Shown here: one piece after another, positions 15,799 through 47,300 of the stretch | Layout: every line of letters begins with the position of its first letter | Numbering within the stretch: position 1 is the stretch's first letter | From: Phoronis australis | Lineage: Eukaryota > Animalia > Phoronida | Assembly (NCBI GenBank): GCA_002633005.1 | Contig: NMRA01000248.1 | Span: 124,001 to 188,000 of the forward strand | Direction of reading: 5' to 3' | DNA: 64,000 bases | The notes under the pieces: generated by a model | What the model saw: only the letters and a program-made list of their open reading frames with translations | The model's database searches: none | What the model was told of the DNA's origin: nothing | Made by a program: the position numbers and the translations under genes

Positions 15799-15838
15799 TA
15801 CACACACACGCACCCACGCACGCACACACACACACACG

Positions 15839-15869
<31 letters not shown>
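15799..15869. repeat. (CA)n microsatellite
   Basis: Visible imperfect CA run. Confidence 0.95.
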
Positions 15870-15872
<3 letters not shown>

Positions 15873-21260: not shown

Positions 21261-21469
21261 CTAATATGCTGGAACCTACTACAACAGCAACGCGGAGCGT
21301 CAACATACACCCCCGTGTGCATTGCAAACGAGTTCAAGTCAAAACAGGGCAAAGCAGTTCTATAGCATATCGTCCACTCATAACGAAGCTGAATAGACCC
21401 CCTGCCCAGCTTGTTCAAATTTTCCATAGCTCATTGGAATATCAATGGGTGGTTGGTCCACAATAATGT

Positions 21470-22520
21470 TCTGCGAAAAATTTACCATTTTGACTGTGAT
21501 GTGGTTTCTCTGAATGAGACGCATTTATGTTCTAAAGATATCATTCAAGTTGAAGGATACAGATTTATTGGTTGAAACCGTGAAAATGTACACATTAATG
21601 CTCCCAAAGGTTCTGGGGGTGTTAGTATGCATATAAATTTGATATAAGTGTAATTATTAAGTCCTTTGACGGTTGAAGTCGCACCGGATCATTCTGTTCT
21701 TGTTTTAAGGTTTAAAATCTCCTCGCCTGGTATATGTTTACCTGGTATCGACACACCTTTAGATACAAATACTCTTTCGAAAAAAAAAACGTAAGCATGT
21801 CACATCCAATATCCCAGCAGAATACAGTAACAACGTGTCTTTTAATGAAGAAATTTTATGTTTAATTGGTTCATTATTGTTATCGTATGAACATCAGAAC
21901 CAACTTGATATAGTGTATCAGTTATTTATTGACCTATTAAGTAAGGAAATGGATTCCTTGCTGGATTACAAGGATTATTATTCGAGACCTAAACTAGGAA
22001 AGTATTTTAAGAGGAACCAGCCTTGCTGGAATTCGGAACTTAACGATTTGTGGAAAAATTTAAAGTACATTCAAAAACAACTTTCAAGAACGGAAATTGG
22101 TCATATTACAAACAATAATTTTCGTGTCCTCAATCTAAATTTGACAAAAAATGTTCATATCAGTTGAAGGTTCATATTGAAAATGAGAATCTGACTACTG
22201 AAAATCCTAAGAATTTCTGGGCATATGTTAAAAAAACTGGGACCAAAACAATTTAGCAAAGTTCCTCTAGAAATCTTGGATTCGATATTAAAGTAAATTC
22301 TGATAGAAATTTTATTCTAAATATTTAAGCACGAGTTTTTAACTGAACCGTATGTGAAGCTCAATTTATCTCGTTCCTAGCTATCTCTTTTGTTCCAGTT
22401 TAGAGTAGGAAATCTCCCATTGCACTCCTGTAAGAGAAAGACTTCTCTTGTGTTGTGGCACTGGTTCTGTGGAGGATGAGCTACATTTTGTATTTGATTG
22501 TTCTCTTTATTTTTAACTCA
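21470..22520 (+). mobile_element. Decayed APE-type non-LTR retrotransposon relic, internally deleted (no RT core)
   Basis: Broken frames give DCDVVSLNETHL...IQVEGYRF...NAPKGSGGV (endonuclease start), WNSELNDLWK, NPKNFWAYVKK, and TEPYV...QFRVGNLPL...GSVEDELHFVFDC (C-terminal zinc-binding motif); many stops and frameshifts. Confidence 0.7.
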
Positions 22521-23317
22521 CTGTGGTCTATTCTATTTCATAATATTTCACTTCAAGTCCCAAACTTTGAAGATTTCAGAAGATTGGACACGTTATAACT
22601 GCTGTTTCAGTATTTCCTTAGGTAAGTCGTCAAATGTATCAAGATTGCGTTTGAACTTTGAAACCGTGGCATTGATGGTGCATCTGAACTGTGTGAATGT
22701 TATATCTATTACTGATTGAATTAGTTGTGCTTATCATTATAATAAGTAAATACAATGCTATACAATACAGCGCAGATACAAGTAATGAACATTATGTTAA
22801 ACATTCCCTTTTTAAATAAAAGTCCCTGGTGAGTTTAAAGCAAGATAGTCAGAAATGTTCTCCTCAATAAGAACACGCCTGCTACATTTCTTGAGGATTC
22901 TTCATATGCTTTGGAGGCTAGGGAGGCAAACGACAAAGGACTCAAAGGCAGCCCTCAACAGAAATACATGCCAACTTTCATGATGATCCAATTGTTACTA
23001 TAGGGCGCAGAAGTCGAATTTGTTTGGAAATCGTCTTCATCCTGTCAATACATTTAGGGGGCGACAATAAGCAATGTGGCTGTACTCATGGCACCTATTG
23101 TTGTACACGGCTCATGCTGTCGCTGAGCAACAATACGCGTTAACGTCGACGATTTATAGTTTGCAACAGTAGTCGCAATAGACAGTCGTAGTAGTGCAAA
23201 CCTGTGGAGGAAAAGCATGGACTTCATGACGGTATTTTTGTAGTAACCGTGTTAGCGTTTCGTGCCATAAACTTGACCTAAGGAGGTGCAACTCACAGTT
23301 TTAGAGCAAGAATTGGA

Positions 23318-23366
23318 ATGGTACGGGCTTTTGTGCTGCTCTCGATGCTTTTTCAACCTTGTTTTG
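23318..23366 (+). CDS. Mosaic lectin exon 1, signal peptide
   Basis: ATG...TTTG|gtgagt; MVRAFVLLSMLFQPCF(A); phase 1 fits the next exon and gives the cleavage site CFA/CK. Confidence 0.7.
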
Positions 23367-26300
23367 GTGAGTGTTTTGAACCTGAGAATTAACTGACCTG
23401 AAAAACGGTCATAGGGTGAAGGATGCATTTGCTCGTTGGCAGTTGTGCGAGTGTATAAAAGCAGATTAAGCAGCTAATAAAAATGACCAAAATATGGCGA
23501 ACTTAGGGACATCACATAAAGGATTTCTGGAAATTGACTCACCCAAAAGTACACTCGTAGGCGTATTTTAGGATTTTTTCCAAAAATACGCCTATGGACT
23601 GATATTCGACAACTGTGTTTGCATGTTTAAAAATCTGATGGATTGTTCTAAAATACGTATGATATATGGTACTGAGGTCTGTGTTTGCTGAGTGCGAAAT
23701 AAGTATGGAAGAATTAATTTTTACTACTGAGATACAACTAGTCAACTATATACATTATAAAGGACCTACTTATTTCAAGCGGTTTCCAAAAATACACACC
23801 CCTTTCCGAAAATACCCAAGGGCGTATGTTCGGTTTCATTTGCCGGTTTTGAAAGGTCGTTTTCTGCCCATTGGGCCTGTTTTTTGGAAATTCCCGGTAT
23901 CTCAGAAATGTCTCTTCAGACTCATATGAAATTTTCAAATACTGTGCATTATACAGTAATCTTCAAAACGCATTTAGGATTTGTTTTTTAAAGGATTCAA
24001 TTTTTGCATGAGAGGTTACGAAAATAGTATAATAATATTTAATAGATAGTACATTCCTGATCCGATTTTTAACCAAACAGCGGGGCCACTCACATTAAGT
24101 GCCATTTTCACACTATAGTACATAGTATCTTCCTGAAGTATGTTGGTTAAAACCACCACAGCTGATAACGCCCTAACATGTCAACAACATTGTTTAAATG
24201 AGACTCTGTTTGACTTTAAATCGGTGATCGTTTACGACGATTTGGACCTGTGTGAACTTAACAAAGCACGTATAGATTAATAAGTGTCGGAGGCAAGTTG
24301 GGCAAAGGACACTTCTTCTGGCTATAATGAAAAAAACATGCCTGGATATCTGTAAGTACAAAAACTACGTAACGGATGAAAGTTAGCAACTTCGAAAGGT
24401 AACAATTATTCTGATGGCTAAAGGTGTTATTATTTCCGGCCCCTCCCAGCCGTCACCGCTTTTGAGCTCTGAGGTTCCCACTCGCCATCTCTACACCATA
24501 CCACTCAAATTTCTTGTCAACCTCTTTGCACAAAATTCCAAATGGAAGACTACGGTAGTCGCTAACCATGCTTCCGACGAACCTGAAACTCGTTAAATTA
24601 AACTCATGTGGTCGATCAATTCGATACAGAAGTCCACACAGATTACTCAATAAGTCAAACGTATGATCATGCATATTTACGTCCATGCAATATGTTATAC
24701 ACCGTTTTAATGTACCAAATTAAAGCAATTACTTGATTAAATATGACAATCCATCACACACGCTGTTTTGAAACTCCTTTATTCAAAACCTTCATGTATC
24801 AAAGTTCTGTAAATAATACATGTACAAAAACAGAACGGCGCTGGACTGGTTAGGCAGCCACACCAGGTGACCCCGATCTCGTCCAGTTATGATTGGCCAC
24901 AATGGGAAGTCAATCAACGAAAGTTGCACTCCCAACAAACTATTTAATACTTAGCAAAATAAAATTTTGCCAGTTATGCTGCTCTGACAATGTGAAAAGT
25001 AGATTTTCTAAGGTACACTTGTTGAAATGAACCCTATCATTTTTTCTCAGATTTACTGTAATTTGAGTTATTTGACCTTCAATTTCAAAAAATGCCTAAT
25101 TTGAAAATTTTCAAAAACTTTGTGAAATTTTGTGAAACTAACTTGTTAGATAGAGTTTAAAACGAGCTTTCAAAATATGCTCTGTATTTTCGCTACAACG
25201 TATCGTTTTTGAATTATTCGGGATTTTCTGATGGTGCTGTTCCTTTGTAGACTGATTTTTGCTGCTGCACTTTTGTTGGTTTACCTTCGGCTGAAAATGA
25301 CAACATTTCTTTCTCATTTATGACATCTTCATTTGTCATATGATTGCTCAACATCGACACCACCACCATCATCATCATCATCATCATTATCATCATTATC
25401 ATCATAATTGTCATCATCATCATCTCCATTGTCGTCTTTTTAGACAATTTTGTTAAGTGTCACTCCTCCGAGCGCTTTCATTGCTTGGCAAAATAGAATT
25501 TCACAAAGTATGTTGTTCTGGCCAATGAGATAAATATATTTATACCACAATATTAGCCTCGAATGGCAGATACAACCGTGTAATAACCCATAAAGTCATC
25601 TCACTAATGAGATAATATTTTGGCGGGAAACCGAGGCCGGATTCGAGCCCGGGCCTCAAGAGTTTCTAGTCGCCGACTTTACCACTACACCACTTAGAGG
25701 CTGACGTCATCGAACGTGAAAATAGAATACTTACATTTGTAAATGAGAAAGGGCATTGCACCGACATTTATACGCTATGAAAAATAAGACGCATAATTTC
25801 CATAAAAACGATATATTAATTCAGTGAAAATTTTCTCTCGTGTTCTCTCACTTGTAATTCACCGATTATTACATGTTCTCAGTCGTTATCCCCCTTATCT
25901 AGAGCCCTCGTGGATTTTGTAGAATTATCAACCTCGGGGCTAACGCCCCTCGGGCGAGCATTCTCCAAAATCCACTCCGGCTCTAGATAACGGGGAATAA
26001 TGACTTCGCCATGTAATAATCTATATTGATACCACAATATTAGCGTCAAATAGCAGATACATATAGATTATTACATGGCGAAGTCGTTATCCCCCGTTGT
26101 CTAGAGCCCGAGTGGATTTTGAAGAATTATCGCCCGAGAAACTTGATGAATCGATTTACCTTTTCTGACTCTCCACGGCTTTGTAACTACTTTCTATGTC
26201 AGAGGCCGGGGTCGAAGGTCGTGACCTTTTAAGAAAAGCCCGATTATTTTTGTCAAATATTGCTTTTACTCAAAACCAATTGAAAACTTAAATATTATAG

Positions 26301-29300
26301 AAATAAATTGAATTTATAAAGTAAGGCTTACCAACTATTATAGCTTAAAACACGTTTTTTTCACGCTAAGCTTCGACCGGGAAATTATCGTCTGCTAAAG
26401 TAGGTTACCACTGGTAACTGAATATAATTCTCAAGTCAAAGATGCTGACGACACGATACCCGCATTCAAACTAGAGATCGGTGATTTACAAGTAAGAAGA
26501 CATGAGAGAAAAATTTCATGGAATTAAGATATCATTTTTATGGAAATTATGTGTCTTATTTTCCGTAACGTATAAGCACAGTACAATGCGGTTTGTTGAA
26601 CGTGCGATTATTGCGCGTGCTCATTTAAGTATTCTATTTTCACTCTTGATGACGTCAGTCGCTGCGTGGTGTAGTGGTAAAGTCGGCGACCAGCAACATT
26701 AGGGTCCCGGGTTCGACCCCGTCCTCGGTTTCCCGCCAAATCGTTATCTCGCTAGTGAGATAACTTTATGGGTTATTACACGGTTGTATCTGCCATTTGA
26801 CGCTAATATCGTGGTATAAAACCGTGTAATAACCCATTTAGTTATCTCACTAGTGAGATAACATTTTGGCGGGAAACCGAGGCCGGTTTCGAAAAAGGGC
26901 CTCAAGAGTTTCGAGTCGCCGACTTTACCACTACACCACTCAGCGGCTGACGTCAACTTATCGTGAAAATAGAATACTTAAATGAGCACGCATGATCAGC
27001 AAAGGGCATTGTACCAACATTTATACGCTATGAAAAAAAAGACGCATAATTTCCATAAAAACGATATTTTAATTCAGTGAAATTTTTCTGTCGTGTTCTC
27101 TCACTTGTAAATCACCCATCTCCCATTTGAATGCGGGTATCGTAACGTCGGGATCCTTTGACTAGAGCATTATACTCAGTTACTAGTGGCAACCTACTTT
27201 AGCAGACGATATTATCGCGGTCGAAGCTTAGCGTGATAAAATGTGTAGTAAGCTACAATACTTTCTAAACCTTAATTTATAGATTCACTTTATTTCTATT
27301 TTGTTTAAATTTTCAATTGGTTTTGAGTAAAAACATTTTTTGACAAGAATAGCTCGGCTTTTCTTAAAAGATCATGACCTCCGACCCCGGGCCTCTGACA
27401 CAGAAAGTAGTTACAAAGCCGAGGCGAGTCGAGAAAGGTAGATCATGGCATTCTCGTTCAGTATGTGGTATAAATAGATTATTACATGTTCTCAATCGTT
27501 ATCCCCCTTATCTAGCCATTTTGTTTTCGATTTCAGATTCAAAAACCCATAGAAGCCGCATTTTTTACGTACACGGCTGAAAATCAGTACGTTTATTAGC
27601 AGACATGTACTACCAGATTTTCCATAAATTATGCACTTCCGGTCCAAGATGGTGGAAGTATCGGCCATTGAATTTAGACACCCCGATTTCAGGAGGAAAA
27701 CTTTTGTCCTGCATAGGGCGCATGGTAGAACCAATTGCATTCTAAATTTTTCACGTTTCAAGTTTTTTTAGTAGCTGCTTAACCTGAAGTTGTTTTCAGA
27801 ATGGCAGTCTGACGCATTTTCATTAATTTTCAATCATTGGGGGTTTTATTTTGAACGGGAAAACCAAATGACGTTAATTTTTGCATGCAGATTCTCTGAA
27901 GTACAGTCTTTAAATGTACTGAACATTTTTTTCTCCATTCCACTGTTCTTGTTCGCGTAAAAGTTATTTGTACATACCAATGACATCGTGAATAAAATCT
28001 ACGGTATCTAAATCAAAAGTTTGAGAAGAACTATCGGCACATTATATCTTATCCTACTTCCTGACTAGTTCTTGCATGACTCGTACAAAAATGAAGTAAG
28101 AAATGACACTGACCGGTATGCTGGCGACTACCCGGATGGTGGCATCAACCACTTAGTGTTCCCACTCGATCTTTTTGAATTCTTCACACAAAAAATAATC
28201 ACAAATGAACTACTTACCCCCATTTACTGCTCTGCCAAGTGAATTAGTTTTCATCTGCATTCGAACAATTCGGAACCACGTCAAGTTACACTCCAAAGCC
28301 TCTAGTGCGAACACCGGCCAGTATTAGACTTGGTCGCATCACCCTCATGAGAGAGAAATCACAAAAGGTATCCTTCTGCATATTGCGGCACAAAAACGCT
28401 ACCACAGTAATGGCCGTGATTTTATCTGTCTACCATCAACGGATAAACCTCTTCACGCAGAATACCGGATGCAAAATATTCTTTGTGAGAAAAAAATCAC
28501 ATCATAATCTAATAGCAAGCCACAGGTAGTTTATGGAATATGTTGCAAACAGTTTATCCCGTTCAATCCGCCATCTTCTTGTCACATCACGTGACCTGAT
28601 GAATATAGGTCCGAAAAGATTTCTGCTCCCGACCGGGACCCGAACCCAGGACCTTCTGCTAACGATGCAGACGCTCTCGCTGGCGGATTCAACGGGATAA
28701 AGTGCTTGCAACACAGGTAGTTGTAGCAAATTTATCGCTAATAGATAAGGATGTCATACGAAACCACTTTCTCAACGTTGGAGCAACTACTTGAATTCAC
28801 CTCTTTGCCTATCCTGTTCTTTTTGCCCATCTAAATCTGAAATTATTGGGGGTGTCAGAACTCTTCTTCGCAATTAGAATGTTGTAATGAATGTCCATGC
28901 ACTAAACTATAGTACGGTTACAAATCAATTTAATTTCAATGACATTAATTGACATTTTCTAATGAAAATTGTTTATTTTAGTACCACAATTTTCTTTAAT
29001 CTTATGTTATGCGTCTTACAGCTTATTTCATGTTAACACACAGTATATGCCTGAGAGTCCTCTCTGCTAACAGCTGCTTAAACATTTTGCGACAAAATCA
29101 TTTTACCGCAACAATGTAGCTACTAGCGTCAGCCAAGACTGCTTCTGCAGGCTGCACCGACAGCTTACATGTTTTTCTTGCAGCATGCAAAACTGGTTGG
29201 TATACTTGGCGCGGACAGTGTTACAAGTTCTTCACGGAAAGTGCTTCTGGAAACTCCAGCAATGCCTGGCATAACGCTAAGGACGCTTGTATGGCAGAGT

Positions 29301-32300
29301 CGGCCATGTTATCAAGTATCAATAGTGCCGAAGAAATGGATTTCGTCAAAAGCATTGCCGAGTAAGTATTTACATATGTTGATGAACTTTCTTTATTGAA
29401 ACAATTAGCTCAGTTTTTGATACGAACACACGGATCCTTACGTAGCGACGAGTGAATTTTCAATTTGACATCATTGAGCTCCAATATCAAGATTTCTGTA
29501 AATATCACAAACAAAACATTAAAAACATCATTTTACTTAATCGGGAATTGTTTAAAGCTGTTCTAAAACCGCATTTGGTCAAAGATAAAAAGTTTTGATT
29601 TACACCTCTCGCCGTCATGAAACTGGTCTCAATGCGTTCCTTACTCAATTGTTCCTTCAGACATAGAAATAACTCACTATTTCTTAAGACCATGCTCAAA
29701 CCAAGCCCCAAAATCCCCTAGTCCCGTCTTATTTGAGTAAGGAGAAAATTGGGACATTTTTTGTTTTTTTAACAGAAGGCAGTGGTTTGTACTTACTGTA
29801 AACAAACCCAATCGCACGTCACTCTACTAAATGGCACATCATCTCATGAGAGGGGCTCCATGTACATGTATATTGCCTCTTTGTTAAAGCAGTTTTGTAT
29901 TGTGATTCTTACAAAAGTGTTGTTGTTAGGTTACGTGCTGTCTAGAATGAAATATATAAATAAATAACGAGCTACATGATAGCACAGTTACAGAAAATGT
30001 CTAAAACATGCAGTGCTATTTTGAAGCACGTCTGGCAATCGGTTATGCATATTTAGTTAATTCGGCACTGTATTTTAAGTTGTGAGATCTATCTCCAAGC
30101 GCCGTCATTTTGTAAAATTACTTCCCGTCACTTAACCGCTAATATTCAACGCAAATTTGCTGGCGATCAAGTGTCGACTGAAATGTATGGCAATTTGTGG
30201 GCTTTGCAACGAACCGGGAGACAAACGGACCACCAGCACAAGTGTCGACTGTATTTTCTTGTGGGGGATGGCCCTATTGTGCTTCCTCTGAGGCTACCCC
30301 GGTGTTGCTAAGAATATAATTGTTTCCCACAGAAAACACTACCCTGCCAGCAAGTTTTACATAGGACTGTCCTACGGTGTTCATGGGCATGAATGGGCTG
30401 ACAACTCTGCGACGTTCTACACACACTTCGGCCATGGTAGGTTCACTTCAATTTATGCATCTGTATATGATGACTTGACTATATGCAATAGCAGACGAAC
30501 ACTTGGTGTTACTAGTGGATGTATAAAAATGAATAACATAAATTTTATGAGTGTCATAAAAAAGAAATTTTTTGGCTAATATAGTCACGGCTCTTTGGAA
30601 AACCTGAAAGCAAAATAGATGCAAATGAAACACACCAGGGAAGAGTTCAATAACGCTAGAACCTCGCTAAATACATGTAGCAAGCTTTCTCAAGATAACG
30701 CGAGATATTGCCGTGTATATTAAATGGGAGCACGTGATTTTGGCAAGACTTTTCTCGCCTCGAGACAGCTACTGAACTCTACCCCGGAATATGCAGGTGA
30801 GGTGGTACGGAGATCTCTTACCTGGCATTACTTAGCAATTGAAAGCAAGGTTTAGTCGACTGCTGACGATTCAATCAATTGACTTTTTTTTGCTTTTTGA
30901 CTTAAGCTTGATGACAGATATATTCTAAAAATAACTTAACTTTGATTGTTTTGTTTTCTGCTTTTGACGAAACGTTTGTGTTCTGTCTAGTCGAGCAGAT
31001 TATGGAGTCAGCGATTTTGTGTTGTAAACAGAGGTTCAAACTTGTCCTGCTTTGGTGAAACAGCCCAAGTTCTCCATTGACTTAGCTTAGCCTAAAATCA
31101 AAGGCCAAATTCCAAAAGACGGTTCGAGAAACAGGGCTTTGGTGTCGTCTATCGATCTTTAGGCAAGCGGCAGGGCACTTTAAACCTACGTAGGCACATC
31201 TCTACTCAACAAAGTCCATGAAAGAATTTTGCTGTATCGTATACTGTGCTTCGTCGCAGGACAAATGATAAGCAGAATCGATATGCTGCTGATGTTTTGC
31301 TGTTCATACCCATGCGCGTACATGTATATATCTCTTTTCGAAATGTTCTATTATTTACACCGAACAGGTTTCCTTGACCGAGAAAACTTATACATGTATA
31401 TCGTGGGGTTACCGAGACACTGAATGTTATTTCATCATTTGTTTATCAGTCGACTAAAAGGGTGGGAAGTGAAATTCCATATTAATTTTTCAAAAACCAG
31501 CAAATAAGCATGCGCGGCGAACATAACGCAACATTAACCCAGTGTTGTCTGTTAGAAAATACGTTTTAATTGAGATCGCTTACGGCTACAAAACTGGTTT
31601 TGTGAGGTAGCTTTAATCCTTACTCACATGCAGTTTAGAAGCGATATCTGAGTTCGGAAAGAACTGGCACTCCGTTATTTTGTCAGGCAGAACGAATGAA
31701 ATTTCTGGTCACAGAGTCTGGAGAAATAATGAACGGTCAGTTCCTTCGAAGATAACACCCACCTCCAAATTGACTAAGGATCAATTTCACAATGGCGAAT
31801 GCTTTAACTCATGTTTGTGATAGAAGGTATGGAACAGCTTTAAATTAATTTTGATATGGGCGTGGTGTCTTTTATGAAAAAAAACATCCGCGGGCGAGGA
31901 AAAACGCGTGGATAATCGTTTTGCTTCATATTCTGAATTGTTTGTGACATATAGGCTTTTGTGAACAGTAAAGATTGTAAAGAGAAGGCTTACGAACTAT
32001 GTAGTATTGAGGGACGGAGATAACACTTTGAATGGCTCTAGAAAATCACATACTGTACAGTCTTTTGGGAATTCAATCGTCCCCCCCTGAGAAACCGTCT
32101 AGCAGAACATAGACGTCCCAGGTTGTGTCGCATTCCCTAGATACCGACCATGTCATTTACCGGAATAAAGTGAGACTTTTGACTTCTGACTACACTTGGT
32201 TTGTGGGGTTGGAGCCAAGTCGCAATGAATGTATACGGTGTTGGTAACCTGGCCGAGTTACGAAAGCACGTGTTTTCCTGTTCCGAATGAATACCTGACT

Positions 32301-35300
32301 GAATTAGCACAGTCACACCTGATTACTTGATACGTCATGCTGCGCAAAATTTCAACAAGGCAATCACTTGAATGATAAACTTGTGATTTCCCAATTGTGG
32401 CGGTCTGGTTAGTGGTATCAATAATGGCGTCCGAAATATTGTTCGCTGGTTTTGTTTCCAAAACTTGGTTCCACTGTCCGTTTATTTTTTATGTATGCTC
32501 ACTTATATAAACACAAGAGGGATTGCAGGGTTGCGTTCATGAAGTGTTGGCTTTTAGAAATTCAGCGTGCAAAGTGGACAACGAAAATCAGATTTGTTTT
32601 TATGGCTACCACAGCGGCAGCAGCACCATCAGAATATCACTAATGCAGTAAAAGATCTGCAGACGAGCTTTTGGACATTTAAAGGGAATTGGCTTTGGTT
32701 TAAGAAGAAATAACTTTGTAATGGAACTTTTGGCGGCGTGGCCTTGCTTTTTTACACCCTTGCGTTCATATGCGCCAGGTGTATATTTGCACGTATGTAA
32801 ATTTAGAGGTGATGTAATTGGACACCCGTATGTAGTTTTACACCCAGGTGTATTTGCGTGTACATGTAAAAATACACACCGTATGCAAATATACATGCAA
32901 ACTCAGGTGGGAACGCAATCTTCTAAGCGGGGTTTCGAATTGTGCATTCATTTCAGCTGGGCTCTAAACTGATAAGTGGATTTTCTTATTCATTAGCGGT
33001 ATATTTGCAAAATGATTGCACAACTTTCAAACCGCCCTTGGTCTTAGCAGATACATTAATTACTGAAATGTGTTTTATCACCAGTCCTACAACCGTTCTT
33101 AACAAACACACTTGCAATTGCGAGATAATTCCAAAAGTAATCCCCGGGGATCGATGCCAGGGCCTAAGAGCTCCCCACTGAGATTCAAAGCAATTTTATT
33201 GTTCTAGAACAATATTCTCTTTTCTAGCAAATGCTGCTTGTGTCGACTCCGCTGCAAAATGTATGGAGTACTGAGCGCAAAAAATGTTGCTTTTCTCTTT
33301 CACCATACAAACGCGATGTAAATTTACATCTACAAAAGGGTATAGATTTGCGTTTGGTGTATATTTACATACTAGTGTAAAAGCGCAGCATATAAACGGG
33401 GTTTTAGTCACCCCTGGACCGCTCCAAGAAATGCCGAAGATCACTTGAACTGGTCAGATTTTATAATCAACATGTCTTGAGGTTCGTCGGTGACCGAAGC
33501 CTTGTCTACACTCATTGATTTGACGATAGCACACGACACAAAATATCGGAACGTGTAGACAGACCTTTAGTTGAACATATACGTAAGATGTCGGACAATG
33601 ATTGGGGTCATTTAAGCACAAGTCGAGTAAAACCTTAAATTTAGAGTGTCAAATTTCTGCTTTTTTCAGGTTACGGTGTGACGAAGAAGATTGTTTGTTT
33701 CCCTAACCAACTGTCATTAACCTGCCCACTTGGTAAAGTTCTCCGTATACACAGAGCAAATTTTGGGCGGACGTCAAGTAACGTATCAGGCTGCGAAACT
33801 GAGGTAATGTCATCGTTTTCCCCATTAGGATTACTACGCACATCTTTGCTAAACATGCACGAACATTAAAGGATTTGATACATTTGTTTTTTAAAATAAA
33901 ACCGATTCCAGTTTCGTGTTTAATACAAACTGTAGTATTTTATCCCATTATCACACACAACTGTGCATGCATTGTTGTTTGAAATAATGACTTATTTTTT
34001 CAACAGAAACACATACTTGACTGCATCTCGCCGTCCAGTTTTACGATAATTCACAGCTCCTGCCATAATAAGACATCTTGCACCGTTAATCAAAGCACTT
34101 CTGTGTTTGGTGACCCCTGCCCAAGCGAAAAGAAGTACATTGAAGTAGACTACGATTGCGTAACAGGTATGATGCCGACAGTTGATGATGCAAGTGCTAT
34201 CTTGCCACTGCGACTGCGCATAATGGTTGACTGTCGGTTTCATCGGTTCAACCAGCTAAGACGTCCGATTGTTCTGTACGCTGGAAGCTGTCATCGATAA
34301 GCAACCAGAAATGTCTTGGCCGGTCGACACTGCAGAACCATGGGAGTCAATTAAGTGCAGCTTATGCATTAACCATAGCAGAAACATTTTCACCTATGAT
34401 TTGCGTCAAGCCGTTTTGTAAGAAAATCGCAAAAAATTATCAAATTACCACTTACTTTGAAAAATGTCATATCTGCTAACGCAACTTAAACTGTGGGTAT
34501 CGTTGGTGTAGCTGGCCGTAGGAAGCAGGGGGAGGGTGGGAGGCAAGTGCCCCCCACTAATTTTCGAGCTTCAGGGTTAAACCATGGTGACAACCGCCAT
34601 AGGCGTGGAGCCGGGGGCTGTCGAGAAAAGAAAGACAGTGAAAGTTGGGGTAGGGAGAAAATTCAAGAGACCATTTGTCCACTAGCAGTGCTTGGTTAAT
34701 AATAATATTATTTAAAAAAGGAGGCCGAAGTGATATAAAGAACTATAGATCCATGAGCTTATTAGCCCATACATACAAACTCTTCACAAGGCTATTACAA
34801 AATAGAATGGAGAAACAACTGGATGAAAATCAACCCCGAGAACAAACAGGGTTTAGAAAGAGCTACTCAACAACAGACCATCTGCAAGCCCTTGGACAAA
34901 CAATTGAAAAATGTAACGAATTTAACCTGCCACTTTGTGTTGGTTTCATAGACTATGAAAAGGCTTTTGATTCAATTGAACACTTTGCCAACATTGAAGC
35001 CCTAAAAACATCAACATAAATGAAACATATGTAAAACTGCTTGAAAATATATATACAGATGCCACCGCCAAAATACACATCGACAACCACGTCTCTGAAA
35101 GATTCAACATAGAGAGAGGGGTTAGACAGGGTGACCCAATTTCACCAAAACTGTTTACACTGACAATGGAAGAAATCTTCAAATCTTCAGACCTTCCAAG
35201 GGGAGTAAACATAGACGGAGAACGCCTAACAGACCTAAGATTTACAGATGATGTTGCTTTGTGCACAGAAGACATAATACAATTTGAAACAAATTTAAAT

Positions 35301-38300
35301 ATACTGAATGAAGAAAGCAACAATGTGGGATTAAATATACAAAAGGACAAGACAAAGTACATGACAAATTTTGAAACAAATGAACAAGTAATGGTGGAGA
35401 ACAAGATCATTGAAAGAGTCACACAATATAAATACCTGGGACAACATATGACCAATGAAATACAACTCCGAATAACAGCTGAATGGAGTTTATTTGGAAA
35501 AAATAGAGAAATATTCCAAGATAAGAACATACCCATATCCCTGAAAAGAAAAGTATATGACCAGAGCATCATCCCCACAATCACCTATGGATACCAAACA
35601 TGGACCTTAACAAAACAGACAATTGCCAAGCTAAGAACAACACAGAGAGCAATGGAGAGAAAAATGCTTGGAATAAAGTTACTAAACAAGATTCCACACA
35701 CAGAGATAAGGGAACAAACAGGAGTCGTGGACATAATCAAGATAATTTTGAATTTGAAATGGAGGTGGGGCGGACAGGTGGCCAGAGCACAGGACAACAG
35801 ATGGACAAAAAGATGCACCGAGTGGCAAACCAGATATGGAAAGAGATCAAGAGGACAGCCCCAAGCCAGATGGAGAGATGACATCGAGAAGACGAGAGGT
35901 ACAACGTGGATGAGAGCGGCAAGAGACAGAAAAATTGGAAGGCATTGTCAGAGGGCTACATCCTGCAGTGGATGGTCAATGCCTAGAGTCAGAGTCAGTG
36001 AGAGTAAGTTCCTGGTTTAACCTTTGAGGTTCCAGGCCAGGGAATTGTTAGGGGACCCCAGTTTCTTGCAGCATTGATCATCTAAGGGTACTTGAAGACG
36101 CACACTTAATCATTCATACAGGTATTTCGATAAAGGTCGAGAAAATATGTAAAGCACAACTTTTGCAGGGCATATTAATTCATGAGAGTTTTGAATTCAG
36201 GAAGACAGTTTTAGGGAGTGCAAAACTATATTTTTCTCGTCAAGTCTTTTTTCGTGTTCTTTCTCAAAATTGTATATCACGTGGTAAAAAGTGAGAACCT
36301 GACATATAGCAACGATTGCTTCTCATTTCCTGTTTTTTATTATAGATCCTCTAATATTTAAGAGCCCAGTCCTTGTAGGGGGCCCATTGATGGCATCCAT
36401 GCGGCCACCCTTTTCGTGCCTTTTATTGATAACTTTTTGGAGGCAGCTCACGGACAAAGGGCCCAGTGATTGCATTGACTGCCTCTATTTTCTGTCTTTG
36501 CGAAATCGAAAAACTTTTTATGTTAATGAAAGTCACTTCTTAGAGGGACACACGATGATGGAATTAACTAACACTCTACCATTTTTAAATGATATTTAGC
36601 CTTTCATATCAAGGGTACCCCTTTCAAACGAGGTCCTCACTCGGAGGGGCATCCGGGGTACTTGCTGATTCGTCCCTCTATCAGCCCGACTCTGCCAAAT
36701 ACTCACGAGGGGAAGAAGATAGGATTCCAAATTCACCTAAAAAGTAAATTCGTGCAAAGCACAGCAGTGTCAAGACATTCAGCCGCAAGAACAAAAAGGT
36801 TGCAGTGAAAAATGCAATTGGATAAACCGTCATTGAAAGGATGAGAGTTTGAAGAACTTGAAGAGTCCTATTTGTGAAATACACAAAAGAAATAGTCCCG
36901 ATAAAATGTCGCATACTCACACATGTCGGACAAACTGTCGGGGGTAGGATTTTTGACGACCATAAACAGAGTACATTTCAAATGGATGGTACTCAAAGAA
37001 TTATACAAGAATTGGCTCTCATAAGCAAAGAGTTCAGCGAACTTTGAAGTAAGTTCGATTTTAGCCCATAAACCGTAATAGCAACCTGCACAATGAGCCA
37101 AATTACTCTTCAAAACGAGTAAATTCGGAAACATTTTGGCCCCATACCTGGCGGGATACCCTCTCCCACGTTCCCCAGATAGCCCGTCCAGAATCTGCAA
37201 GCAACCTTCGGGAATTGCTAATGCTATTCTGATTTGATAGAGAACGAATTCGTTGGTTTCAAATTTATGCGTTTACGTATCTACGAAAATCTTTTTGGAC
37301 AATTAGAAGGTAATCGTATAAGAATTCATGTTTCAGTGAATGTACTTGTAGGCTACACTAGACAATCCTTGCCTATCTGGAATAATTCTCAAAGGTATTG
37401 ATGAAGTTTGAACAGTTCTACAGTGTCTCCCAACAAAGTACTCGCAATTCAAATGGCAACAAATGGTTCTTGAACACGACTGGTGATTTTAATTTAAAAC
37501 AAGATATCAAAAAGGGCTGAAGTCTTTCAATCACATTAAACGCATTGCCAATTATACGTACCTTCGGAAAATTAGGTAGCTTTGCACTTGGCAGCAGGCA
37601 AGGGCGTAGAATCGGATACACGGGAACGAAATTGATCTGTTGACGTTGTACAGGACATAGTGCGAGTACAATTTTGGGACACCCCCTGAACAATTTTCCC
37701 CAGCCACTAAAATTAGCGCTACCCGTGCTTTAACAAAGGATCTTTAAACAATTCCACAAGCAGCGTATCAGGGACACCGGAACGTCACACTTACAAATTT
37801 TATGCCTTTTAACCATGACTGTTTTCCGCAAACTGGACCACAAGGTTTGCCTCCTACCCAAGCAAAGCGTGGGAGGTCGGTTTAAGATTGGCAATATTTC
37901 AGATAATGGAGGGAAGAAGAATGGTAACGGTTTTCTAATCGATTTTAACTTATGTGCTCATGACACTGACGAACGTTTACAGTTTGGTTTGCACATCTCC
38001 ATGTAGATTTCAAGCTTGGAAGCCATTTCACATAGCCCACCCACAAGAAATGTAATCTGTATCTTTAGTATCATCAGACTTGTGTTCTGTAAGTGCGATT
38101 CCCACTAGGGTGGTCGTCATGAACGACAATGTGGAGTGTCGTGAGACCATGGTTTTCTAAAACTTTTCACGGTCACGTTTGGTCGGTCTATCTCCTCTTT
38201 CTTGAACGGGTGGAAATGACTGCGCTTGGATGCAGATGCACTTGTGCTGACTATAGGTTGCACGTGATATAATTTTACTGATTTCAGATGTCAACTCATG

Positions 38301-41300
38301 CACCGTCTTAGATCCTTCGGTTGGGTTTTCGTGGAAAGATTCATCGTGTAGCCATAGAGATATCGGATACCTGTGCAAGGAAGGTAAATTCAGTACATTT
38401 GAAAAGCTTAGGCGAGGTTTGTGACTAAAACCTGTTGATTTTTATCTTCTATTTCTATGTAATGGTAGATTTGTTTATAGTAAGCAGCCATTCCCACAGC
38501 AAACTGAGTCCCAATCTGGTGGCACAGAGATCAGTAAATTGGCGTATTCATTGTTTCTTTTGTTTTTCCTTGTTATAATAAAGACAATGACAAGCATTTA
38601 TCGATAACCGGCTGAAAAATTAAGGTATTCATGGGACATGTATTGTTACAAGCATATTCAATAAAGACGCAACGAAAGAAAACAATGGTAGCGTTCCATA
38701 TGTAAAAACCATGCGACGCGCTTACGCCCGTCGCACACATGTCGCTAGTTAAACAATACCTTGCGAGATCCATACGACGTCATTTGGCATGGGAACACGC
38801 ATTTTAGAAGTAAGCGACAATAATTAGTTAACCAAATATTATCCGTTAACAATAAGTTGAGCTTCTAAAAACTCTTTAGAGTTAAGGTAATGTATCTCCC
38901 TAGAAATATATCCAAGTTTGGCTAACTTTGGAACATCATATTTCAAAGATGGCTGAACTTATGAAACTTTTAGATACAGTGCATTATGAACTGTCATTAA
39001 AATGCTGTTAGAAACTGTTTTTAAAATGTTCCACGTTTGCGTGAAAAATATGACATTGATGTTTGTTCATGAAAAATGTCTTGAGTTCCACGAAACCAAA
39101 ACGAAATGACATTGTAGAAAACTGTAACACCTTTATTTAAATTTCATCTTGAACGCGTTACGAAAACCCATCACCACCAATTGCCTTACGAACGCGGTGC
39201 GAACCAAGAGTGGCCTACTCAACATGTTCGCGGATTATTTAGGGGACAGGGGACAACTAGTGTAACCCTCAAATTCCTGCGGTGATCGTAAGCATTTTTC
39301 TCATTACTCTGGGACCTCATTCTTAGGAACTCCCGAGCGGCATTCGTGGGACCTCAGAGGTTTCATACGAATCTCCGCGTTTGTAAGAAACATTTGCGAC
39401 CGTCAGTTATCAATATATAAATCATTTCTGTTCCAGCTCGTCAAACATACGCTCCGCTGGACTGCATTAGTGTTCGTAACACTTCCGAAGTCGCTAAATG
39501 TCCCTCTGGTAAGCTTGCACTCGATCATAGAACTCTGGCCTTGGAAAGCCAAGCTTGACCTCGCGCTTCTGCGGTTGCGCCGCGCATGCGTGGCATCTGT
39601 TTGCATTGCTGTGTTCGTTCTCGCTATGGAATTTTATATCACCAAAATTTTTCACAACTCCGTTTTTACCCCAAATTGCATACTAAGAGTCATATCATAA
39701 GGAAGCCCTTCATCAGTTCATTATGGTATATTTTACCAATATTATTCATTTCGCATACCTGACAGGTTTAAAACATTTTTCAATTCTAAAAACCAAGAGT
39801 GTTACCAAATGCAAAAAATAGCTGGATTAGATAGTATAATAAAAAGGAAATGGTCTAGAAAGGTCATGTAAATGACTAATTTAACCACCAGGGAAATGAT
39901 TTCAATGATTTTAAAAAGTTTCTACCCTATCAAGATAAAGAAACTAGAATATGGATCCCCCGGAGTCGTTGTGAAGAACTGTCATGCATTCATCAGAAAT
40001 TAAACATGTTATAAATTAATCAGACCTTTATCTTTGGTGCCGTTTGATACAGTTGTTTCAGGATGCTGTGACATTTACACAAAATGTGATAAACCAATTA
40101 CTACAACTACCTGTCCGAAATTTGCGGATAAAAGATTTCTGATGGATAAAAGCGAACAAACATCTAATTTGGTGTTTTGGGATGCACTTCGTTACCTAGT
40201 TTGCAATGTAACACTTCCCATAGTAGTTTATAAATAGACTGAAATCAGAAAGTAAAAACTAGTGATCCTGATACAGGCAGTCATGTTTTATACTAAACAA
40301 GAGACACTGACTGGAACCAGTGAACGAACTTCAGGAAATAAATGTGTTGGGCCGCGAGGCCAGTTAGCTTGAAAAGTTACTAGTCCTGCTGCCACGTTGC
40401 TGGTCCTGCTTTTTGCATTCAAAATGCATTTTTCTTAAAACTTGTTTTGTACGTCATCAGCTGCAACCCTCCAAGAGCAGAATTTACATGTATATCAATT
40501 ATAATCAATAGAAAATGCAGAAATGAGAACTGCAGATAACTTAATTATCCCTTCCCAGAAAGGGCTTTTTGAAAAACTTTTCTTTCCGTAATATTTATTT
40601 TAAAGCTGAACCAATTTGCTCTGGAAAATTCCAGAAAAACAAGCTTTCTTGGTCTTTCTCGATGTACATGTAGATGTAGGATATGGGTGAGTAGGTGTGC
40701 ATTTTCATGAGAACTAGCTGAATCATAGTGCAATCTATTTAAAAATTGAGTCTTCTAACAAAAGGTCATGGCCCAAAGGATAAATGCAATACTGATATTT
40801 GTCAAATTAACAAATCTTCCCTAAATTTTTTGCTCTTCTACATGTTCCGCTGTGTCTCTGCCACTGCTATAGACCAAAACCAATCCACACGACGGTTTCA
40901 CTCGTAGTTATTGGGACGTGTAACTTCCATGTCCCAGGGTTCATCCTTCATCCTTTATTGAGGTTGCACTGTCCCACATCAACCTCATATGTACAGTTTA
41001 GTGCTGACTAAATTGCCCGAAATACATTTTATACGTGGAAATGCTACTCTTACGTGTTCCACTGAGGCTCCAGGAGAGCCGTGATACCAACAAATTCCAC
41101 GTTCAGAGAGATAAAACAAACTTGCAGCTTATTTAAGAAACTGTATTTTTTAGAATTCCCGCAAGGTGTAGCATGTCGATGCTCCTGTCCAATCAGCCGC
41201 TGGAGAAACTATCGCCGCACGTGCGACTGTTCACTCTGTAGTTCAAATGACGTCAGTGAGGCCCGCTGTTGTAAACCTCAATCCGGATATTCACCTGGTC

Positions 41301-44300
41301 CCGACTACAGACCCTCTGTTGAATGTCTGGAGATTAAAAACCATCTTCCCCATGCAACTTGTCCCACAGGTAGGTACTTCATCGATCATGTGATGCGTGA
41401 AATAATGTGTGTGGGTGTGTGAACGTGTGCGTGCATGCGTGTGGGTGCCTATACTACACACTCTTATTATCTTACACACTGGGGTTACACTCTTTTTGGT
41501 AACAACTTAATTTCCAACATTTCAGCTAGAGCGTTAATGAGAAACGGGATTCTTATACTTTGAACTGATTTACTTTTTTGAAAACCGTCAAACTTGAATT
41601 TTAGTTAAAACTTTTTCGAAGTGATTTGCAACTCAGGTAAATGCCAATCTTCGTTCGATCTTTCTACGAAGTGATAACTATTTGTCCATAACTGCATGTA
41701 CCCTAGTAAATTCTCAGTATTCTTTATTACAACCCGAGTATAACATCATGCAATAACAGTACAGATAACTAGTGCATAAAACGAATCATTCTATCTCAGC
41801 TTATAGCTTGCAAATTATTTCAGAGAAAAATATAATACTGAGAATAATGCACAGAAAACAGCGAAAACAAAACGACATCGTACGGAATTAAAGGACTAAT
41901 GTTTAAAAAATCCCAGAAAACTCAGCTTAGCGTAGAAAATAAACCAGTTGTTACAATGACACCCCGGTGGGAAACTGGGGTAGAATTTAGCAACGCTAGG
42001 ACCTCTATAAAATCTAGCCAAAATCCCGGGTTCTCATTTGCAATACAAGGCAATATCTTACGTACATGTAATCTCTTGAAGTCGTCCTTTTTAGCGAGGT
42101 CTTAGCGTTGCCCATCTCTACCTAGGCTGGAAGCTGGTCGCATAGAGATCGGTAGATTGGGTACATCCATTGTTCACTTGTTATGATAAAGATAAAGAAA
42201 AAAAACATTTATCGGTAACCCGCTGATATTCGACCATGGCGAGATATCCATACTACTTGTACTATTGTATCCAGCAAACACGTAAGAAAGGAAAACATTG
42301 GTAGCGTCCCATAGGTAGTAACCAAGAGCCGCGCTTACACCCGTCGCATTCATGACGCAATGCTTTGCGAGCTCTATACGACGTCACTTGGATTTAAAAA
42401 TGCGATCACTAAAGTTTTGCAGTATTAAAACAATACAGCTGTAACCTAAATTGTGGCAACCATATAATAGCTTGTGAGTTTTTTCAGTCCTATTTCTTCA
42501 AAACATGTGATTGCTGTTGAACATTATGGTAATTTATGTTTTGAAAACAAGAGGAAAGGGCGTGGAGTGATTTGGTTGGCGCAAAAACCTAAATTACGTT
42601 TTCATAAGACTTTCAAGTCAGAATACTGTATTTAAAACTATGTATTTATCCCCGCTACATTGAGATCTGTGTTAAAACAGTTGTGATTTGAAATTTTGCT
42701 ATTGGATGTAGATTTAGGGAGGTTTTAAAAGAAAGATTATGTAAAGTATGTAACCAAAATACTAATAAAGGAGAAATTTATTTTAATTTCGTTTTCACCT
42801 GATGTAAAATTTTATAAACGGGGTTTCGAAATGAATGATCAGTTCTAGACTTGTTTCTAAATTACCTGGAAGCTAGCTCTTGCGAGGTTTTCGATTAGGA
42901 CACAAGATTGTCGAAGGAGTTGCCTATATTGTGTGTAATAAGCGTTTGTTTTTTTAATGGTATTGACCAAGAGGCAGGGGATGTGTCGCATATTAAGTAT
43001 TTTTGTTTTGTATTGTATTCTGCGATGCATCTATTCATTATAATAAATAATGAATATACCAATGTTATCAAACTGAGACCAGATCATTGGATTGGAGGTT
43101 GCGAAAGAGCCGTTCACAAACATCATTATAGACGGGCATGTGAGCAAACAGCGAGCTATTAATTTCATGAACACAATGTATTCTTGACCAATAAAGTCAC
43201 AGTTATTTAGTCTAAAATGTGCGCATGCAACCTTCCACTTAACCGGCGACGTCATCATCGAGATAAGCTCGGCAATAGTTATTCCATCTAATTCATGGTT
43301 GAATTTGGTATGTGAACATAATTTCAGTGTCATACGATTGTGGCGGCCATTTTGATAGTGAACCACGGAAAATTAAATTCGGTTAATTTAGTTAAAGTGG
43401 GGTCGTGTATAACCTGTGTTTTACTCCAATGTTTGCTTTAATAATCGGTTTGAGCAAAATTGAACAGAAGGAAGTAAATAACCCAGACATGACTTTTTGT
43501 GTTTTAGATTTTCCAACAGCCACGGCTTGTTCTTGTAGCAATTGTGGTGCAGCTTTTGAAATCACGACTGACAACAGGTGTAACTGTACTGTTGTCGCTA
43601 CTGACTGGACTTCGGCTCAATGCTGTAGGATCGTGTATACACCTAGAGCGACAGGTTAGTCACTACGGTCTACGTTTCACTTCAAGATTTTGTGAGCCGA
43701 TGGGAATGCAGTGACAAGGTTAAGGTAAACCAAGTAGTTGTGGCAGAGTACTGCTATATTTGAAGTAGATGTATTGTTTTCGTTTAAAGGCCACTCGTAG
43801 ATGAATATTTATGCTAGTAACGAGTCTGGCAATATCTCCCAACGATAGGTTTCGCCATGGCAATGGTCGCAGGTAGGCTAGCTCTTATCAATGTTGAGAT
43901 GTGCACGCCATGGAGCATTTGTTCGGATTGTTCACAAAAGTCACGCATCAATATTCTTGCATAGAACCTTAACTCCGTCACTCTTAAACTTGATGCCAGG
44001 GAATCAAAACCAACTATTGCGTGCGGAGTAGGCTCACCTACAAAATGGTGCAATATATTAACTTGACATTAATCTTCCCTCTTGAGACATCATGGTCTTC
44101 GACAACATTATGCAATGTACAGACGTACATGTATGGACACTGTGAAACTTCACATTACTGTCCGCCCACGATGTAAAAGTTAGGAATACAGTCAAAGGAT
44201 TGTTGCAGTGGCTTTCGGGTCCAAGCAGGTTTTTATACTTCTGAAACCCCGGTGGAAGCTTAATTCAGCAACAATACTGCGTGTTAGTCAGTATCTGTAC

Positions 44301-47300
44301 CACCACTCCAATTATGATATGATTCGTTTTCAAAATCGAAATGCTTTTCGTGGAATGTAGTTATTAATCTTCACCCTGTGAAGGTCTTTCCACGGTAACT
44401 ATGGCAGCACTTAATTCACTTCGCCGATTGCATTCTGCGGGATCCACCGGCTAAGGCAACTGATTGGTTTTTAGACGGACGACGACTTCAGGCTAACAAA
44501 CCAATCAGATCTCTTAGTGGGTGACCCTGCGGAACAGGGAAAATCCATCAAGGGCAGCTTGTCCCACGCCAGATTCTCTACCATCATAATATACAATGTA
44601 GGGCCATTACAGGGAAAAGTTCAATGTCAAAAGTAATAAAAAATCGAAGCCCTTGGACAAGTATCAATTTGGGTCTGTGTCAGTCACGTTATGTATTCGG
44701 TGGTGAGATGAAAGTCGATTGTGTTATTTACGTATTATTTTTGCAGGTGAGTTTCTAATTGAAAGATATTTACAAATAGACGGTATAGTTGTCGACGGAC
44801 ATGATGACTGGACGCCATCCAGCGTGACATCCGAAAAAGAGTGTTTGCAGGCTTGTGAAGACCAGGTAATTAAGTCATCTTTTTAACACAAAATACTACT
44901 CCATTTCCTTGTATTACGTAACCACCTACTTAATGGAATAGGGGCAGTATTTTAAAGTGATTTTACTTCAGTTCCCGAGCACAGAGTTTACTGTGGCACG
45001 TATGGCCGAGTTCGACAATGTAAAATGCCGACAATATTGAACTATATTGTCGCTCAGGCGACATTATCTGTCCATGCCTAGAATTGACCTATCGCCAGGA
45101 TTTTGAGTGACGGCGTAAATGACCATTTAGAACGCAGCATTATTGACACACTTTCGTTTACAAGCCGCCATTTTACCCGATAAAGAACACGTTGCCGGGT
45201 AAAACTTATTGTTTGTTACTCGACATTACGCAAGGGGGCGGAGATTGGGATAGGTCAATTGTACTGTGACACTTGGCTTTCCTCATTTCCAACTGCTGGT
45301 TTATGGTCCATTATGTTGCGCACCCAGCATAATAAACGAAACAGAACACTGGCTGTGCAATACTTTCCACTTAAAATTATAGTATAAAAGATAAATTTCC
45401 TGTCCGACTTTCAAATTTCAAGAACCTTCCTACAATTACCTTCGCGAACTGTTCAAAATAGGCTATTTATAAATTTCAAATTGAAAACTTGAAAATACCA
45501 TTTTTGCTCCAGTGTTTACAGCAATGTTTATGATGGACAATTTGGCGCCTGATTACGCAAATTAATTTGTACAAAACGATCACATCAACTGACGCTGGAT
45601 GGTTTTTAAGGCTATCAAACTGGTTTAGTTGCTCAAACTCGACCGGTGAGAATGTCACCGTTGAATTCCTTTCATGTTGAATGCAGCAGTATCAAAGCAG
45701 TATACACCGGAACATATTGTCGACCCCTAACTGTGTTAAAAAGTAGTGTATTTTAATACAGACTTAAAATCAGATTAAAATCAGTTTTGGCAGATAAGCG
45801 GGTGCAGAGTGAGAACGTATCCAAAGTGAGAGAAAACCTCAGGAAATTGTACGAAACACCAAAACAAGATTGTGGGAACATGACTGGGGGAAAGATCCGG
45901 GAATTAAGTGGTTGGTTTTCATGACAACATGGCCTGATGCGTAAATTTTGCAACCAAGAACATTTAGAATATTAAGAACGTGTGTGACTCCCTCCAAATT
46001 TAGGTAGCTCCTTCCCCCGCCACTCGAACTTCGGATTGGCATTCCGACGACGTGTCACATACTACCGAGAGAGTATCTTGTCAAAGTTTGGATTTGCGCA
46101 TGCCTCCACTTAGTCCTACACGCCCTTTCACGGACAACACTTGTATAAGTAAACACATGGGGATTTCCTAAATATATGAATAAAGGTCGCGCAATTATTC
46201 TCTCTGACTCGTTTTTTGTGCATTGAGTTTTAGTAATTAGTTCTAAAAACAAGAGTTCCATATTTGAAAAGTGCGCAAACTTTGACAAAATCAAAAAAAT
46301 GCCCGTTAGGATGCAGATTTTCAGTTGCTTTTGCCATTAAAATAGCTTGACTAAAATAGTATGATCATATTTTCCGTACAGGTTGGATGCAACTCAGTGG
46401 AGTTCCTGTCGTCGGAGTTTAGTGCATGTAAGCTGAGTCGGTCCTCAATAAAACATGTCGGTATTTCTGGGTTACTGCAGCAGCAGCCGGGATATACGTA
46501 CTACGAAAGGCTGGACGGGGAAGGTAAAGTACCCAATGATCACATTGAGTGTAGGGCCCTGTATATGGCAGGGGCGGATCCAGGATTTTGAGTTGGGGGG
46601 CAAGGTAGAGTATTAGCCAGGATTTTGCTCGTCAGACATTCCCAGCTCCGAACTGCCAAATGGAATTTTAGGGGGGACATGGCCCCCTTGGCCTCCCTCT
46701 AAATCCGTCAGTGTATGGCTATCGAACATATTTTAGCTGTTTAATGTACCTGGGTCATTATCAAATTTTGGGGTCTGAAAATCAACATTATAATCGAGTG
46801 TCAAAATGGCGCGAATGCTTAAATGTTGCTGGTCAGTTTTGAGACGACATCAAGTCGGTGTGGTCGGCTTCCGAATAAACGACTAAGTTTTGAACACGCC
46901 AAAGCAAAAATTTCATAGATGGTAGAAAATGTCGAGCTGAAATGTCAAGACAATTGCAGTCTCCAACGACAAAGCCCCGAGTGGGGAGGCACAACGGATA
47001 TACGGTCCCTGTTTATTGCAAAAAGCCATCACTCATTCAACACTCATTTCAATTTTGGGTTCACGCCCCTGTTCGCTGAGAAATAGCATACATTGAACCC
47101 CTTCCCCCGGAAGAAAACCGTTATCTATTTTTGCCTCCTCCCTTGTGTTGAATTCTTCTGGCAACTCGAGTAGCGATCTCGAGGTACAGAGGGAAAAATG
47201 ATGGCACCATCATTTAATGCTCATTATAAATTTGTTAATACTTTAAGAACTATATTACCTCAAAATTTAATCTCAACCTGGTCTTGGGCGGGTAAGTGAT

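Follow-up and report, generated by a model that had tools for sequence, protein, structure and literature searches.

The window analysed here comprises 64,000 nucleotides (nt) of the phoronid Phoronis australis (GenBank assembly GCA_002633005.1, contig NMRA01000248.1, positions 124,001 to 188,000 of the forward strand; all coordinates below are those of the window), and its letters are those of animal DNA, with short exons separated by long introns. On the + strand we identified a gene whose frame stays open over 11 exons (29184-49238, 537 residues), starting with a unit in which a SUEL lectin domain lies inside a C-type lectin domain (CTLD), followed by two resistin-like and two PAN domains (Table 1). 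Three exons (CTL-a, CTL-b and CTL-c, or exons a, b and c) encode the CTLD and two (SUEL-a and SUEL-b) the SUEL domain. An initial annotation had proposed that a complete SUEL domain is nested in the CTLD loop, and this is borne out at the DNA level, where the CTLD is split around the SUEL domain and the frame is open.

Each of the five exons is flanked by AG and GT and, joined by their coordinates, they give an open product of 223 residues, with 14 cysteines and no stop. Splice sites were scored by a leave-one-out procedure, the matrices being derived from 12 further exons picked by hand in the window; the acceptors of the five exons belonged to the best 0.26-2.04% of the 3429 AG sites in the window and their donors to the best 2.3-7.7% of its 3759 GT sites. 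The SUEL exon pair, located between CTL-b and CTL-c, constitutes a symmetric phase 1-1 cassette, as initially annotated; phase 1-1 is the usual pattern among shuffled extracellular modules, and the modules downstream likewise start and end in phase 1. No exon of the nested unit is part of a direct or inverted repeat of at least 40 nt in the region searched (22000-64000).

CTL-a alone was recognized by Pfam as Lectin_C (positions 2-34 of 107, E 3.5e-4) and matched CTLDs of the PDB (best E 3.1e-11; top match NKG2D). CTL-b and CTL-c had no Pfam match individually, and CTL-c aligned with the C terminus of a CTLD from a mannose receptor (E 0.002). The CTLD was also analysed with our own hidden Markov models (HMMs), built from natural domains of the proteins in the homolog search described below (6 and 17 domains in the two CTLD models). 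These gave the single split CTLD match that had been anticipated, residues 1-97 and 189-215, bracketing a full SUEL match (101-190, E 1.2e-28), and the product without the SUEL exons was a single continuous CTLD (62.5 bits). In an alignment with 17 natural CTLDs the break sits exactly at the position of the EPN/QPD motif, in agreement with the proposal that the SUEL domain replaces it, and this motif is absent both from the nested form and from the form that skips the SUEL exons. The six CTLD cysteines, including the N-terminal pair (optional in the fold) and those of the second bridge, which in CTLDs flanks the W-x-D strand, are in canonical positions, and CTL-b carries YIGL (a WIGL-like strand) and WADN (a W-x-D-G-like loop entry). 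WKD (38332-38340) stands in the place of WND, the motif of Ca2+-dependent C-type carbohydrate-recognition domains.

The opposite case, two ordinary CTLDs flanking a SUEL domain, was sought and not found: both models placed CTL-a, CTL-b and CTL-c at the head of the CTLD matches in 3345 six-frame fragments, and nothing within the two flanking introns scored above 5.2 bits. When 738 acceptors were tried after exons a and b, 38288 was the best site in one model (61.9 bits, against a median of 52.2) and the runner-up in the other (54.4 versus 55.0 bits), and the top eight included no site within 30437-33669. Among 101 donors in the intron between SUEL-b and CTL-c, the true exon b led in one model and took second place in the other.

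A structure model was calculated with the three CTLD exons as three separate chains, without the SUEL domain. It scored 0.78, the best of three controls reaching 0.33, with 100% contact agreement between runs and a partner pLDDT (predicted local distance difference test) of at least 81. The score mark had been calibrated on pairs: of the microbial ones, 51 of 78 solved and 2 of 108 mismatched pairs attained it, and of the eukaryotic ones, 39 of 65 solved and 2 of 126 unrelated pairs. A three-chain job differs in kind from this calibration, and the pass may also stem from likeness to solved CTLDs. In the model the three pieces assemble into one CTLD fold, and Cys35 of exon a, in the helix, contacts Cys29 of exon c, its last cysteine. 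A bridge between helix 1 and the last strand is the invariant CTLD disulfide (PMC2440524), and the modelled contact is the pairing that the initial annotation had predicted for the cysteines of the exon at 38288.

With single exons, Pfam assigned positions 1-22 of the 80 of its SUEL model to SUEL-a (E 0.0084) and positions 33-80 to SUEL-b (E 1.1e-12). The fold is characterised by eight cysteines, (AN)YGR and DPC-x-G-T-Y-KY motifs and a buried Arg and Lys; its marks are retained here, with eight of eight cysteines and ANFGR, DPC and KY. In SUEL domains Cys2 and Cys8 form a bridge. The sugar site has fared differently. The primary sugar site of CSL3 is composed of Glu7, Tyr27, Asn74, Asp79, Gly83 and Lys86, with Gly83 touching the sugar through its main chain (PMC3269628), and the sugar residues of SUL-I are Glu7, Asn71 and Asp76 (PMC10377782). 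Aligned with CSL3, the phoronid domain has Phe for Glu7, Phe for Tyr27, Thr for Asn74 and Ser for Gly83, and retains two of the six residues, Asp79 and Lys86. As comparators we used the SUEL domains in the best 150 of 1466 homologous proteins (506 matches, 378 full length, 371 distinct): the position following the first cysteine is Glu in 301 of the 371 and Phe in one, and 16 of 371 keep two or fewer of the six site residues. Mutational studies of latrophilin-1 (PMC2430599) showed loss of rhamnose and galactose binding in E42A and E42R, and an approximately 80-fold weaker binding in E42D and E42Q, the Kd for rhamnose rising from 1.8 to about 140 mM. For receptor rhamnose-binding lectin (RBL) domains without such residues the same authors favour non-carbohydrate (protein) ligands, noting that an unknown glycan ligand cannot be discounted (PMC2430599). 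Since the essential Glu is Phe and four of the six site residues are gone, a rhamnose/galactose lectin is unlikely here, and the initial proposal that the insert is a working Ca2+-independent binder of these sugars is not supported. Judged from its residues, the nested unit is most likely no binder of the sugars classically assigned to these folds (rhamnose, galactose, mannose).

Upstream of the nested unit, the candidate first exon joins 29184 in frame, with a plausible cleavage site right before the first CTLD cysteine. A signal-peptide exon at 12106 was considered as the first exon of the lectin gene and rejected, being part of a separate knottin-like gene. Downstream, the tandem resistin-like Cys-rich domains (39437-43654, +) form a mosaic of invertebrate type, a phase-1 intron splitting each of them at the same place; they had no database relative (10 candidates in a word-based search, none of them scoring, and no usable match in an Atlas search). 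A phase 1-1 exon-like stretch at 22580-22621 (+), with strong splice sites, has a translation that resembles the end of a resistin-like domain, and no matching first half was found for it. The third PAN domain breaks off midway at a strong phase-1 donor; its second half was sought in 53091-61732 (+) and not found, and the gap may represent a missed exon, a lost exon or another interruption. The gene probably continues past 61978, since a phase-1 donor closes the exon of its fourth PAN domain. PKD1/REJ proteins carry REJ, GPS and PLAT domains and a multi-pass membrane region after their lectin domains; within the window, where the last exon found is probably not the last of the gene, we saw no exon for REJ or PKD and no membrane segment. 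CTLDs together with PAN domains occur in nematodes (PMC5297725). The protein is likely a secreted or cell-surface mosaic with the nested unit at its front.

Table 1. Exons of the nested lectin gene, and a reverse-transcriptase fragment in one of its introns.
Feature	Position	Strand	Basis and phase
Candidate first exon, with a start codon (ATG), a signal peptide and a phase-1 donor	23318-23366	+	Predicted; one of four signal-like candidates in 12440-29183
CTL-a: N-terminal Cys pair, helix 1 Cys (29288), helix 2	29184-29361	+	Phase 1-2; Pfam Lectin_C; PDB CTLD matches
CTL-b: WIGL-like strand, Trp at the start of the long loop and that loop's first half	30333-30436	+	Phase 2-1; own HMMs
SUEL-a: Cys1-3, Phe (33699) in place of the essential Glu, ANFGR instead of ANYGR	33670-33803	+	Phase 1-0; Pfam SUEL
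SUEL-b: Cys4-8, DPC motif, conserved Lys	34007-34166	+	Phase 0-1; Pfam SUEL
Broken reverse-transcriptase fragment of long interspersed nuclear element (LINE) type, SUEL-b/CTL-c intron, outside the protein	34654-36017	+	RVT_1 in two different frames
CTL-c: last three CTLD Cys, WKD instead of WND, final strand	38288-38383	+	Phase 1-1; own HMMs, mannose-receptor alignment, model
Resistin-like domain 1, N-terminal half	39437-39508	+	Pfam Resistin 28-50/88, E 0.034
Resistin-like domain 1, C-terminal half, and domain 2, N-terminal half	41154-41369	+	Pfam Resistin, E 0.098
Resistin-like domain 2, C-terminal half	43508-43654	+	Pfam Resistin, E 7.3e-7, over the curated cutoff
PAN domain 1, two exons	44747-44865, 46382-46523	+	Splice scoring, open frame
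PAN domain 2	48993-49238	+	PAN_1, E 4.3e-8
PAN domain 3, first half	53091-53237	+	PAN_1 2-45/76
PAN domain 4, ending in a phase-1 donor	61733-61978	+	PAN_1, E 1e-11

Other features were noted in the window. A second broken LINE-type reverse-transcriptase fragment (52030-52701, -) likewise lies in an intron of the lectin gene, and copies related to this one and to that at 34654-36017 (+) are transcribed in the RNA runs described below. Nested inverted and direct repeats, with heavy coverage by repeat-derived RNA reads, are clustered at 25535-27515 and are probably several copies of an element resembling miniature inverted-repeat transposable elements, and a near-perfect tandem array of a 13-nt unit (38.8 copies, 99% matches) occupies 4285-4788. 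Directly after a gap of 575 N stands the two-exon knottin-like gene (12106-12190 and 12278-12432, +), which encodes a signal peptide, a short propeptide ending in Arg and a 36-residue peptide of pattern C-C-CC-C-C; its Pfam matches to knottin or inhibitor cystine knot toxins are weak and below the cutoff (Toxin_35 E 0.002, Conotoxin E 0.013). The 3' exons of another gene (5215-6859, +) encode a Cys cluster of RING/zinc-finger-like appearance and then an acidic tail at the end; Pfam gave merely weak zinc-finger matches for it, and we take it to resemble proteins with a DC-STAMP domain (DCST1-like).

We suggest, with a probability of about 0.6, that the five exons are spliced into one unit in which a whole SUEL domain would be grafted into the long loop of the CTLD, and which, to judge from its residues, likely binds proteins or non-canonical ligands. 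Splicing in the nested order is itself very probable, across readings that include an optional cassette. By the mechanism we propose, a class 1-1 SUEL cassette would have been inserted by exon shuffling into a phase-1 intron within the CTLD loop, and not between domains. It is plausible that this landing intron existed inside the CTLD before the SUEL domain arrived, because CTLD genes of fish can have introns located 3' of the WIGL motif (PMC514892). Two features may have made the graft tolerable, namely that the long loop lies at the periphery of the CTLD core and that the SUEL ends are probably close: strands 1, 5 and 3 of the latrophilin RBL form one antiparallel sheet, and Cys50-Cys128 links the ends of strands 2 and 5 (PMC2430599). 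Since the first and last strands would thus share one sheet, the ends of the SUEL domain should lie near each other and remote from the sugar loops, hence suited to insertion. The CTLD would then act as a Ca2+-independent scaffold that fixes the SUEL domain rigidly through two tethers, and the composite surface could be used in recognition or adhesion, in an immune context or in the extracellular matrix.

A search of sequencing runs for the SUEL stretch listed no RNA run containing it. Expression was assessed in three raw-read RNA runs (17-19% of each) and a contig set, all from this species, aligned to 26000-45900, and the resulting tables were dominated by repeat-derived reads. In the two SUEL bins, first mates amounted to approximately 279 and 551 aligned bases on the minus strand and 27 and 46 on the plus strand; in two exon-free bins of the next intron (36624-37951) there were zero such aligned bases. 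This strand bias fits weak transcription of the + strand and is a weak hint of it. The nesting is thus a DNA-level arrangement, no inclusion or skip junction having been seen in RNA at this low depth.

Several observations weigh against the grafted SUEL domain. The 15 of 53 joints listed include no exon-exon joint, and each run covers the exons at a depth of only about 0-3 reads. With a width of 664 bases, the bins could include repeat-derived reads, and the LINE fragment has the same strand bias in two of the three runs. A strongly diverged rival CTLD exon could have been missed by our HMMs, because these were built from few domains (6 and 17), and CTL-b and CTL-c reach only 7.6-11.2 bits singly. 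A donor in the LINE fragment slightly outscored the true exon b under one of the two models (17.7 versus 16.5 bits), which we treated as noise. A nested SUEL domain occurs in 0 of the best 150 of 1466 SUEL proteins, a list biased to multi-SUEL proteins and so weak evidence. Finally, there are four candidates for the signal exon, and the exons found do not extend to the 3' end of the gene.

The strongest alternative, which we nevertheless regard as unlikely, is an alternatively spliced cassette: the gene would yield both a CTLD armed with a SUEL domain and a bare short-loop CTLD, the splice switch changing the ligand surface. In a bolder version, equally unlikely, the CTLD long loop would be a plug-in socket in invertebrate mosaic proteins, and the SUEL domain would have been repurposed from sugars to a new ligand, neither lectin binding its textbook sugar. 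For the spliced cassette, the 1-1 phase of the cassette, the open skip form with its one CTLD and the predicted assembly of the three CTLD pieces without the SUEL domain, with the caveat of likeness to solved CTLDs, are consistent with this, and Ca2+-free CTLDs with a short loop do exist in CBCP and in group V (PMC514892). The initial annotation had expected skipping to restore a plain CTLD, and the skip product is indeed a single open CTLD, but it has no EPN/QPD, carries WKD for WND and has a loop, from Trp to Cys, of 18 residues, below the 23-40 residues of all 16 comparators that could be measured among the 17 natural CTLDs. The junctions also speak for the nested form: counted by eye, the Gly of the nested junction is the residue of 11 of the 17 comparators, the Asp of the skip junction that of three. 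No skip read was seen, at a coverage too low to reveal one.

Less likely still is a functional lectin on the CTLD scaffold that would bind rhamnose/galactose without Ca2+ or prefer other glycans. The eight cysteines, GR, DPC, Asp79 and Lys86 are all present, Gly83 of CSL3 touches the sugar through its main chain (PMC3269628) and an unknown glycan is not discounted in PMC2430599; nevertheless, the essential Glu is Phe, at a position where the latrophilin-1 mutants described above lost or greatly weakened their binding, and Asn74 and Tyr27 are changed too. Least probable of all is that the SUEL exons stand outside this transcript, whether as a small nested intron gene, as a stranded remnant or through mis-assembly of the locus, for which one can cite the missing junction reads (at low depth), the missing nested homolog among the best 150 of 1466, a weak ATG exon with a phase-1 donor at 32721, the reading of SUEL-b on to a stop near 34300 and the fact that erroneous gene models can fuse half a CTLD to SUEL domains, but against which both exons are intact, unlike the frameshifted LINE in the next intron, lie on the strand of the gene with strong sites and phases matched at both ends, and are involved in no repeat within the region searched, while the 32721 candidate is weakly hydrophobic (1.87 versus 2.5-3.7 for the upstream candidates) and the shortfall of the host loop is about what an old insertion would explain.

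Domain insertion, exon shuffling and mosaics of CTLD and SUEL are already known; a SUEL domain inside the ligand loop of a CTLD was encountered neither in the literature searched nor in the best 150 of 1466 SUEL proteins. If the grafted unit is expressed, an intra-domain intron can receive a symmetric module and a CTLD loop can take an entire foreign fold. Inventories of invertebrate lectins may conceal more nested proteins, because standard annotation would call a broken CTLD and a tandem SUEL domain and so overlook them. The locus is also a simple test case, with one loop, two possible isoforms and the prediction of no canonical sugar binding.

Relatives were searched with HMMER on cluster representatives, using as query the 105-residue open frame around SUEL-b, including its intron flanks. 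This gave 1466 matches, the best 150 all at or below 51% identity, with a best full-domain identity among them of 47%. A CTLD is present in seven of these 150 proteins, all tandem or truncated, and in none of the seven do CTLD C-terminal strands follow the SUEL domain. Two proteins were considered as nested relatives and rejected on this ground: P0132, with a partial CTLD ahead of its SUEL domain, and P0085, in which the N-terminal part of a CTLD is directly followed by SUEL domains. The latter, a fish protein labelled partial rhamnose-binding lectin, has (residues 49-207) a CTLD that stops at the loop Cys and is fused to SUEL domains; it is probably a gene-model fusion, and an Atlas search with its residues 45-210 returned plain CTLD or SUEL clusters only. 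Word-based searches gave two candidates for SUEL-b and three for CTL-a, none of them scoring, which is weak evidence. We found no description of a SUEL domain inside a CTLD in the full-text literature searched, most subscription journals being outside its reach, and the accessible parts of PMC8878817, PMC5297725 and PMC12237041 hold nothing on a nested SUEL domain.

Among known systems, the invertebrate mosaics of SUEL and CTLD (amphioxus P0132; P0014, P0016, P0038 and P0096) are likewise modular extracellular mixes, but tandem and not nested. The CTLD and SUEL domains of PKD1L2 and SpREJ3 also stand in tandem order. PKD1L2 and sea urchin SpREJ3 (PMC1934368) resemble the phoronid protein in having a CTLD and a SUEL domain in one extracellular protein; they differ in that these are listed as separate domains of membrane proteins of the PKD1 family, whereas here the SUEL domain lies within the CTLD, with resistin-like and PAN modules downstream. 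The RBL domain of mouse PKD1L2 is likewise without a sugar-binding residue (PMC2430599), and the RBL/SUEL domains of latrophilin, EVA-1 and PKD1L2 share with ours an intact fold, a weak or lost sugar site and proposed protein ligands, but are independent domains, none being described in the accessible part of that source as grafted into another lectin. CSL3 (PDB 2zx0) and SUL-I (PDB 5h4s), the best PDB matches of both SUEL exons, share the eight cysteines, GR and DPC; they are soluble tandem-repeat lectins with Glu7, Asn, Asp and Lys, of which only Asp and Lys are found here. On the side of the host domain, a parallel is offered by the group V receptors of natural killer (NK) type and by CBCP, which retain the core fold and the disulfides while the Ca2+ and sugar residues are gone (PMC514892); in these the loop was shortened, whereas in the phoronid CTLD it holds a domain of 94-98 residues.

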